Positions 51,588 to 52,588 of a DNA stretch of 64,000 bases are shown here, one piece after another. The position numbers were made by a program, and so were the translations under genes. The notes beneath the pieces were generated by a model, which did not search any database, was not told the DNA's origin, and saw nothing but the letters and a program-made list of their open reading frames with translations. This DNA is from Escherichia phage vB_EcoM_ULIM9. The stretch is from the sequence record OQ850288; one strand, 5' to 3'. Each line of letters starts with the position of its first letter. The stretch's first letter is position 1.

Positions 51588-51959
51588 ATGAAAGCTAAGA
51601 GTGCAAAAGACTTTTATTGCTTCCTACAATCCTATATCAATTCCGTGCAAAATGGTGAAAGGTACAGTCTTAATGATGTTATCCCAACACCTTTGACATG
51701 GAGACTCAGCAAATGGCCTGAAGAAGATATTACACCAACAAGCGAACAGCGAACCTACAAACCTGAAATAAATATTCCAGATTCTGAGAACCTATTATAC
51801 CCAATGTTCCATATTGTTGGACTTGGAAGATTCCTTATGGATATCCAGTATGTGATTGGTAAAGGTTATAAGGTTAAAGGTATTGTTGTTGGTGATGTAT
51901 CTCCACATCACAAAGGTTATTTTAGACTAAACGCACATTTAGAGGCTAAAAAGAAATGA
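51588..51959 (+). CDS. hypothetical protein, paralog of the N-terminal domain of 51956-52588
   Basis: 123 aa; shares K.Y.DF..F...V.NG.RY...P.TW....WPE.D...YKP....LLY...F.MD.QY.I.GK pattern with the next gene. Confidence 0.5.
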   Translation: MKAKSAKDFYCFLQSYINSVQNGERYSLNDVIPTPLTWRLSKWPEEDITPTSEQRTYKPEINIPDSENLLYPMFHIVGLGRFLMDIQYVIGKGYKVKGIVVGDVSPHHKGYFRLNAHLEAKKK

Positions 51960-52588
51960 TTAAAGCAAAGACTTACCCAGACTTCAAAGAGTTTGTGAAG
52001 GGCTTCGTTGCAAATGTAAAGGCTGGTAAGAGATATGATTTTAGAACATATCAGGAGGCTATTTTACCACTTACCTATAGTTCATATTGGCCTGAAGCTG
52101 ATATTGCAGAAGTTGAGGAGTTTGACTACAAACCAGACTACAAAGTTCCATTTAGAGATGAGTTGCTTTACAGCGTTGGTGCTCAAATGAGAACTTCTGA
52201 CTTCTTCATGGACTTACAATATGCAATTATCAATGGTAAAGACGTTGATACAGTTTATTGTGAATGGCTGGCAAGAGTTAAACCGTTCTCAATGTTGAAT
52301 GCTAAGTTGAAGGATGCTATCAAGCCACCAGCAATCACTCAACAGCCAACCAATCAAGAAATCAATGAAGGTGATACCTTAACGCTGAATGTTGTGGCAA
52401 CAGGTGCGACAGGTTACCAGTGGAAGAAAGGTGAGGAAGACATCCTCGATGCAACTACTGCAACTTACACCAAAGAAGGAGCAACCGCTGCTGATTCAGG
52501 AAGATACACCTGTGTAGTTACTGGCGCAGGTGGCTCTGTAACATCTAATGCAGCAACAGTTACAGTTAATCCAGCAGGGGAGGCATAA
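51956..52588 (+). CDS. hypothetical protein with C-terminal Ig-like domain
   Basis: 210 aa; C-terminal 80 aa (ITQQPTNQEINEGDTLTLNVVATGATGYQWKKGEE...GRYTCVVTGAGGSVTSNAATVTVN) look like an Ig/I-set beta-sandwich. Confidence 0.5.
   Translation: MIKAKTYPDFKEFVKGFVANVKAGKRYDFRTYQEAILPLTYSSYWPEADIAEVEEFDYKPDYKVPFRDELLYSVGAQMRTSDFFMDLQYAIINGKDVDTVYCEWLARVKPFSMLNAKLKDAIKPPAITQQPTNQEINEGDTLTLNVVATGATGYQWKKGEEDILDATTATYTKEGATAADSGRYTCVVTGAGGSVTSNAATVTVNPAGEA

Follow-up and report, generated by a model that had tools for sequence, protein, structure and literature searches.

The 64,000-nt stretch of Escherichia phage vB_EcoM_ULIM9 analyzed here (sequence record OQ850288; hereafter the window, with positions counted from its first letter) carries two tandem genes at 51588-52588, directly before the endolysin gene. 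The second gene encodes a protein of 210 amino acids (aa), which is the ortholog of Hex-Dec of phage Bas63 and gp20 of phage Sf14, a Hoc-like protein that decorates the capsid. The first gene encodes a 123-aa protein and is read here as a maintained tandem duplicate of the capsid anchor alone. In addition, the number of immunoglobulin (Ig)-like repeats in Hex-Dec appears to have been changed repeatedly by recombination. We give this overall reading a probability of about 0.8. The window region is 95–97% identical in DNA to FelixO1-like myoviruses of the genus Felixounavirus, and the window phage is a member of this group. The coordinates of the pair and its adjacency to the endolysin gene agree exactly with a preliminary description made from the letters of the window. 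The features on which the argument depends are as follows.

51588-51959, plus strand: 123-aa anchor-only paralog with a predicted capsid-binding domain (CapBD) fold and without Ig; equivalent to FelixO1 ORF37, Sf14 gp21, and phrog_4463
51956-52588, plus strand: open reading frame (ORF) of the 210-aa Hex-Dec protein
51956-52315, plus strand: predicted N-terminal CapBD of Hex-Dec, aa 1-120, with R79 and R107 (orthology to PDB chains)
52325-52570, plus strand: single I-set Ig-like domain of Hex-Dec, aa ~124-205 (Pfam, AlphaFold2, Foldseek)
36369-37475, minus strand: major capsid protein (MCP), the predicted binding partner of Hex-Dec, ~14 kb away

In phmmer searches of the PDB, the 210-aa protein matched 9ncf_S (E=9.5e-218) and 9c2d_S (E=4.3e-154), with alignments that run from residue 1 to residue 205/206. 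Entry 9ncf is the capsid reconstruction of Bas63 (PMC12609058), and 9c2d and 9c3a are from Shigella phage Sf14 (PMC11821841). In a T=9 capsid, cryo-electron microscopy (cryo-EM) placed Hex-Dec/gp20 as a monomer at the center of the pentamer-proximal (quasi-3-fold) hexamers, where it is anchored by an N-terminal CapBD of ~118 residues while the Ig repeats are flexible and point outward (PMC12609058, PMC11821841). The Sf14 anchor is held by salt bridges from Arg79 and Arg107 to Asp221 of three capsid subunits, and the authors suggest that the same residues account for the empty true 3-fold hexamers (PMC11821841). Both arginines are present in the window Hex-Dec and are invariant in 29/29 Hex-Dec sequences. 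The window MCP, which matches 9ncf_A with E=5.5e-245 and 9c2d_A with E=1.5e-233, retains Asp221 (KIRDAYL). The ratio of nonsynonymous to synonymous divergence (dN/dS, omega) of the Hex-Dec anchor is 0.044.

All testable defining features of the Ounavirinae Hex-Dec/gp20 family are thus found in the 210-aa protein, namely orthology, R79/R107 together with Asp221, and an Ig repeat. The FelixO1 ortholog, gp36, was found in purified virions with 44% coverage (FelixO1 proteome), and Sf14 gp20 was found by virion mass spectrometry (PMC11821841). The authors of the FelixO1 genome had already remarked that the gp36 gene sits far from the other morphogenesis genes. The possibility, raised in the preliminary description, that the proteins of the pair are virion components is supported for the 210-aa protein by orthologs in two capsid cryo-EM structures and in the virions of FelixO1 and Sf14, and the 123-aa protein appears in no published list examined. 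For this phage, we infer the placement on the capsid from ~95% sequence identity and from the conservation of all three contact residues. A CapBD monomer would fill the central depression of each of the 60 pentamer-proximal hexamers, held via Arg79/Arg107-Asp221, and the C-terminal I-set Ig domain would project into the solvent. By analogy to T4 Hoc, this domain probably lets the particle adhere weakly to cell surfaces, mucus, or glycans, or else influences how particles aggregate. The earlier suggestion that Ig-like domains on phage proteins hint at surface adhesion fits the idea of decoration and adhesion, and in the 210-aa protein the adhesion part of it is carried by the likeness to Hoc.

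Most database records call the 210-aa protein a "tail protein". This label was traced to a match between the Ig domain and HK97-type tail proteins, and the PHROG families of major tail proteins match only aa ~96-209, which is the Ig region. The N-terminal domain has no relationship to tail tube proteins and matches only capsid-bound chains. In the Bas63 paper, the tail annotation is explicitly described as wrong (PMC12609058). The reading as a tail protein was rejected, because the similarity is confined to the Ig domain and the orthologs were placed on the capsid by cryo-EM.

Bas63 Hex-Dec (9ncf_S) and Sf14 gp20 (chain S of 9c2d/9c3a) resemble the window protein in the CapBD with R79/R107, the I-set type of the Ig domain, Asp221 of the MCP, and a gene position beside the lysin and far from the structural module. 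The window protein differs in that it has a single Ig repeat, a recombinant of the first and last units, compared with four in Bas63 and three in Sf14. T4 Hoc is a more distant counterpart. It is also a monomer at the hexamer center, has a small capsid-binding domain with an outward string of Ig-like domains, is non-essential, and has a proposed role in adhesion. However, the PHROG "Hoc-like" families match only the Ig region of the 210-aa protein (aa 128-208, e-13 to e-14), the anchor is C-terminal in Hoc and N-terminal in Hex-Dec (anchor aa 1-120, Ig aa 124-205), and Hoc decorates all T4 hexamers, whereas Hex-Dec decorates only the pentamer-proximal ones. The Hex-Dec anchor has been described as topologically distinct from that of Hoc, which is without the pseudo-C2 two-lobe arrangement (PMC12609058). 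Membership in the T4 Hoc family was rejected on the basis of the reversed domain order and of sequence similarity that is confined to Ig. Outside the Ounavirinae, the Ig domain is closest in sequence to T5 pb10 (5lxk, 8zvi; E=2e-9 and 8e-10), but this similarity covers only residues ~131-207, the Ig domain. Neither the T5 pb10 anchor nor the T4 Hoc anchor was retrieved in the PDB search with the short-protein anchor model. The 210-aa protein works like T4 Hoc and T5 pb10 but belongs to neither family.

In more distant lineages, a single CapBD gene is fused to an I-set Ig, a Big_2 domain, or a Lys/Ser-rich tail. Such metagenomic fusions were located at L037 869-1489, L038 2179-2868, and L040 5001-5462 (the L numbers denote the compared loci), and their modules are a Big_2-type Ig, an I-set Ig, and a Lys/Ser-rich low-complexity tail without Ig. 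Judged from these fusions, the CapBD anchor behaves as a modular scaffold for capsid display.

The Ig-like C-terminal extension of the 210-aa protein, which the preliminary description had recognized, is well supported. The domain passes the Pfam thresholds for Ig_3 (5e-10), I-set (2e-8), and Ig_2 (3e-8). AlphaFold2 modeled residues ~122-205 as a beta-sandwich with a predicted local distance difference test score (pLDDT) of ~95. In Foldseek, this model superposes on I-set/C2 Ig domains with a template modeling (TM) score of 0.90 on the target (the MALT1 Ig domain) and a root-mean-square deviation of 1.6 Å. The N-terminal domain was modeled poorly in the full 210-aa protein (pLDDT 30-58), and the model was used for the Ig domain only.

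The presence of one to four Ig repeats among Felixounavirus species has already been published, and the reason was left open (PMC11821841, PMC12609058). Among 32 loci, one repeat was found in 6, two in 14, three in 10, and four in 2. The ancestry of the repeats was determined by mapping informative sites against a four-repeat reference. In single-Ig alleles, the one repeat combines the first repeat with the last, and at least four different junctions between Ig1 and the last Ig occur. The junction lies at the start of the unit in the window and in adrianh, at about one third in L024, at about one half in SP116, and at about two thirds in L005. Specifically, the window Ig unit is R4-like throughout, and the KPPA linker that precedes it is of the Ig1 type. 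Hybrids also occur in longer alleles, as the second repeat of FelixO1 is an R2/R4 hybrid and the first repeat of REP8 is an R1/R2 hybrid. The repeats are ~250 nt long, are 62–70% identical in DNA within one genome, with identical runs of 15-20 nt, and are under purifying selection (omega 0.07-0.16). The differing hybrid junctions and the shared identical runs are the signature of repeated, independent, in-frame unequal recombination. This origin of the Ig copy-number alleles is unpublished as far as could be found. As a separate observation, the Hex-Dec gene is split into 2-3 ORFs by frameshifts or stops in MET-P1-301 (L003 2556-3940) and ST11 (L034 2869-3750); the phages are natural knockouts of Hex-Dec, or else the repeat region was sequenced incorrectly.

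The 123-aa protein and the N-terminal part of the 210-aa protein are paralogs, as had been claimed from the sequence. BLASTP aligned them with 34% identity over 121 aa (E=2e-15), and each protein matches the PHROG family of the other (1e-14 and 8e-17). In phmmer, the 123-aa protein also matches the solved Hex-Dec chains (E=1.6e-11 for 9ncf_S, and 8e-11). In 29 genomes, both families have the same residue at 35 columns, each of them conserved to at least 90%, and RY, WPE, Y.P, LLY, and MD[IL]QY lie among these columns. Structure prediction for both proteins, which the preliminary description had named among its checks, showed the Ig beta-sandwich in the 210-aa protein and a fold in the 123-aa protein that matches only the Hex-Dec anchor in the PDB. 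The AlphaFold2 model of the latter has a pLDDT of 71.8 and a predicted TM score (pTM) of 0.73; it matches only 9c2d_S and 9ncf_S, with TM scores of 0.67-0.69 and a probability of 1.0, and the next match has E>1. In a library of predicted viral structures, it matches only Ounavirinae proteins. That the shared N-terminal domain is a capsid-binding anchor could not have been inferred in the preliminary description.

The 123-aa protein has no Pfam match, and its ORF ends after the anchor domain. It shares the CapBD fold and the homology of the Hex-Dec family, and it lacks the contact arginines and the displayed Ig. Position 79 is Gly in 29/29 short proteins and Arg in Hex-Dec. Position 107, also Arg in Hex-Dec, is H (14), Q (11), N (3), or K (1) in the 29 sequences. 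Furthermore, the short proteins have an invariant and more hydrophobic LLYPMFHIVGLG where Hex-Dec has the polar LLYSVGAQMRTSD. The short gene is an anchor-only tandem duplicate with altered contact residues, which is unpublished as far as could be found. The main text of both structural papers does not contain the word "paralog", and a search of the Sf14 supplement gave nothing on the short gene (PMC12609058, PMC11821841). Its presence was confirmed in the Sf14 genome, where the 123-aa paralog is gp21; neither the Sf14 nor the Bas63 paper describes this protein (PMC11821841, PMC12609058).

No stop or frameshift was found in the short gene in 29 genomes of two genera, and its omega is ~0.10-0.15 over divergences with a dS above 1. 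Its dN is ~3 times that of the Hex-Dec anchor, and the MCP is nearly invariant. The order ORF38-like gene, short gene, Hex-Dec gene, and lysin gene is common to Felixounavirus, Mooglevirus (Sf14 gp22-gp19), and a divergent 87-kb metagenomic contig, and L035, a deeper metagenomic lineage, has an intact short ortholog of 122 aa. An exhaustive profile search of 1.84 billion representatives for wider homologs of the anchor domain returned only 13 proteins. In the SP116/REP8 sublineage, the short gene is a decayed pseudogene with a lost start, a ~220-bp deletion, and frameshifts, and this sublineage accounts for the ~19 of 252 phage records without an intact copy. These phages keep the last ~90 nt of the short gene, including GAGG and ATGA, and their Hex-Dec gene is intact.

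A further observation concerns the passage from the short gene to Hex-Dec. Compared in the same pairs of genomes, the short gene has a higher dS than the adjacent Hex-Dec anchor, e.g., 0.64 versus 0.27 for the window and L018 (comparison of L016-L024, window 51588-52315), and the short gene falls into two identity classes, at least 95% and 84–89%. The dS contrast and the identity classes suggest a putative mosaic recombination boundary between the short gene and Hex-Dec.

The pair lies in a compact unit, which contains the following further elements.

51550-51563, plus strand: short hairpin GGGGC-TGAT-GCCCC, weak and terminator-like, in the gap between the ORF38-like gene and the pair
51577-51581, plus strand: Shine-Dalgarno sequence AAGGA of the short gene, 6 nt before ATG
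51942-51945, plus strand: Shine-Dalgarno sequence GAGG for Hex-Dec, inside the 3' end of the short gene
52588-53052, plus strand: endolysin of the GH24/T4-lysozyme type (PF00959, E=2e-40; phrog_7)
53062-53089, plus strand: strong intrinsic terminator, AGGCTCCTTCGGGAGCCT then TTTTTTATTTT, which closes the short/Hex-Dec/lysin unit

The three genes are bounded by the hairpin on the 5' side and by the strong terminator on the 3' side. The short gene and the Hex-Dec gene share 4 nt (ATGA, a stop/start overlap), and the Hex-Dec and endolysin genes are joined by a 1-nt TAATG overlap. The motif TAGAGG is invariant in the 21/21 junctions listed, which are from Felixounavirus, Moogle-like phages (including Sf14), and the L035 lineage, and a nearby A-run is not conserved. 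The embedded GAGG and the ATGA overlap imply a putative translational coupling of the short gene to Hex-Dec. Both AAGGA and the ATG of the short gene are destroyed in the SP116/REP8 pseudogene. The hairpin at 51550-51563 is kept in FelixO1, SP116, and REP8 in the alignment, and the equivalent site in phage KhF3 is annotated as a rho-independent terminator; in the window, the hairpin failed the T-run criterion of the terminator scan. A late-promoter-like motif, CTATTTATAAGG, upstream of the pair was discarded since it is not enriched (11 matches versus 8.4 expected).

The 196-aa upstream gene (50950-51540, plus strand; phrog_4034) is conserved and shares synteny with the pair across all lineages examined, the distant ones among them. 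A faint precomputed Pfam label, Phage_Inh_N, on a distant homolog of this ORF38-like gene would echo the hoc-inh synteny of T4; it was not reproduced by hmmscan and was set aside.

The preliminary description had derived a possible lysis-accessory role from the adjacency to the endolysin gene, and this role did not hold. A scan for transmembrane segments and lipoboxes found none in either protein, with a maximum Kyte-Doolittle value in a 19-residue window of 1.14 for the short and 1.04 for the long protein. Only the neighboring endolysin gives matches to lysis families. In FelixO1, reverse transcription-PCR placed ORF36 and ORF37 in the late class together with the morphogenesis genes, and the flanking ORFs 35 (lysin) and 38 in the middle class, so that the lysin belongs to a different temporal class. 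In the distant lineage L040, the single CapBD gene also adjoins a lysozyme gene. Because this single-copy lineage has the arrangement too, the lysin adjacency is regarded as ancestral synteny of the decoration gene. The endolysin is a neighbor and functionally not part of the decoration pair. Downstream, orthologs of a 129-aa ORF (53495-53884, plus strand) are labeled "D-alanyl-D-alanine carboxypeptidase" in adrianh and ST11. No Pfam match supports this label (the best is PIG-H, E=0.094), which is probably a propagated mis-annotation. A defense or anti-defense role was also considered and rejected, as there were no PADLOC matches and no informative NCBIfam matches.

Published virion data bear on the question of what the 123-aa protein may do. 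Its FelixO1 counterpart, gp37, is not in the FelixO1 virion protein list, which has a cut-off of at least 25% coverage. The protein is not among the VpaE1 virion additions named in the text of that study, whose table (S2) is an unreadable image. Although the Sf14 genome encodes gp21, this protein is not in the Sf14 virion Table 1, which is restricted to structural proteins (PMC11821841). The proteomes of FelixO1, VpaE1, and Sf14 did detect other proteins of 10-14 kDa. For phage wV8, the published analysis covered the tail fiber alone.

We tentatively favor a reading in which the 123-aa protein is a late accessory that is either absent from virions or sub-stoichiometric in them. Its place would be the capsid-hexamer/Hex-Dec step of head maturation; this proposal may well turn out to be wrong. 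It would be a late product, translationally coupled to Hex-Dec, transcribed late with it, and kept by purifying selection, and it may bind MCP hexamers or Hex-Dec itself transiently while the head matures. We do not expect it to decorate the capsid stably or to act in lysis. Several points weigh against this reading. The binding partner of the 123-aa protein is a tentative proposal. Confidence in the 123-aa model is moderate (pLDDT 72), and Hex-Dec sequences were part of the alignment used for it. The decay in SP116/REP8 implies that the short gene is dispensable, which also fits a marginal function, and the case from the virion proteomes is one of absence from published lists. Regarding Hex-Dec, capsid binding in this phage is taken from the orthologs and the adhesion role is an analogy; otherwise, there is essentially nothing against this part. 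A final point is that a monomer on a true 3-fold axis would be blurred by icosahedral averaging, and it leads to a different and rather unlikely explanation, in which the 123-aa protein is an Ig-less plug of the 20 true-3-fold hexamers of the T=9 capsid and the pair tells quasi-equivalent hexamers apart. Such a plug could have been missed through this smearing and through its small mass, since 20 copies of 14 kDa are less than 1% of the virion protein. The Hex-Dec anchor fold of the 123-aa model, the late expression, and the translational coupling with Hex-Dec would all suit a plug, and positions 79 and 107, which differ systematically, are the residues that the Sf14 authors propose for the quasi-3-fold preference (PMC11821841). 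However, both cryo-EM studies describe no density on the remaining hexamers (PMC12609058, PMC11821841), and the asymmetric Sf14 map at 4.5 Å, as described, has protrusions only for the quasi-3-fold decoration protein (PMC11821841). The absence from three virion proteomes that saw proteins of the same size, the ~3 times faster evolution than that of the Hex-Dec anchor despite a near-invariant MCP, and the decay of the gene in one viable sublineage also speak against a plug.

The loss of both contact arginines and the replacement of LLYSVGAQMRTSD by LLYPMFHIVGLG could also mean that the 123-aa protein has been repurposed for a non-capsid target (e.g., a host factor or lysis timing) and keeps only the ancestral fold. 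Its faster divergence than that of the Hex-Dec anchor, the lack of reports from virions, and the placement of its gene in one unit with the endolysin from hairpin to terminator would agree with this. We consider it unlikely, as there is no transmembrane segment or lipobox and no match in Pfam, NCBIfam, or PADLOC, the adjacency to lysozyme is ancestral to the CapBD gene and the FelixO1 lysin peaks earlier than ORF36/37, and the strict coupling to Hex-Dec argues for a common pathway. Alternatively, the short gene could be a marginal remnant of the duplication that is kept mainly as a carrier of the ribosome-binding site of Hex-Dec and the coupling signal. The ~90 nt retained in SP116/REP8 after decay of the rest, the invariance of TAGAGG everywhere, and the ~19 records without an intact copy are what this explanation predicts, but a mere spacer would not hold 123 codons under such constraint. 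The omega of ~0.1 over divergences with a dS above 1, the freedom from stops and frameshifts in two genera, the intact L035 ortholog, and the conservation of the short gene's own good ribosome-binding site make a remnant improbable. Finally, a programmed -1 frameshift at GCT AAA AAG AAA TGA could join the ORFs into a CapBD-CapBD-Ig fusion, in the way that Ig domains are added to other phage structural proteins, given that an AAAAAG run lies 3 nt before the overlap and that, from this run on, the -1 frame is open and is the frame of Hex-Dec. Hardly any weight can be given to this idea. The run is replaced by CTGAAAAG in L004, by GCTAATAAATG or GCTAAGAAATG in Moogle-like phages, and by GTAAAAATATAATG in L035, Hex-Dec has its own invariant Shine-Dalgarno sequence and ATG, Met1 of Hex-Dec is the first residue of the solved chains, and there is no gp37 entry in the FelixO1 virion protein list.

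Outside the pair, the window encodes a 471-aa DUF2828/DUF7788 (TROVE/vWA-like) protein at 48462-49877 on the minus strand, which is annotated as "RNA-binding protein" in the FelixO1 RefSeq record and as "vWFA protein" in adrianh. In relatives, the gene of this type adjoins a large array of tRNA genes. A Ro60-like RNA-binding protein beside a phage tRNA cluster may deserve separate attention.

The finding is mostly known biology with modest additions, and current understanding is not overturned. One practical consequence concerns annotation. Hundreds of Felixounavirus and Mooglevirus records mislabel the 210-aa protein as "tail protein", and some mislabel the 123-aa protein as well; the corrected labels are capsid decoration protein for the former and paralog of the decoration anchor domain for the latter. 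Hex-Dec binds one of the two hexamer classes of the T=9 shell, and a conserved, co-expressed paralog that is altered at exactly the two published contact residues offers a handle on the choice between quasi-equivalent sites or on the control of loading. Moreover, a small modular CapBD combined with an easily recombined number of Ig repeats is of interest for phage display on phages of the FelixO1 type that serve in therapy and diagnostics.

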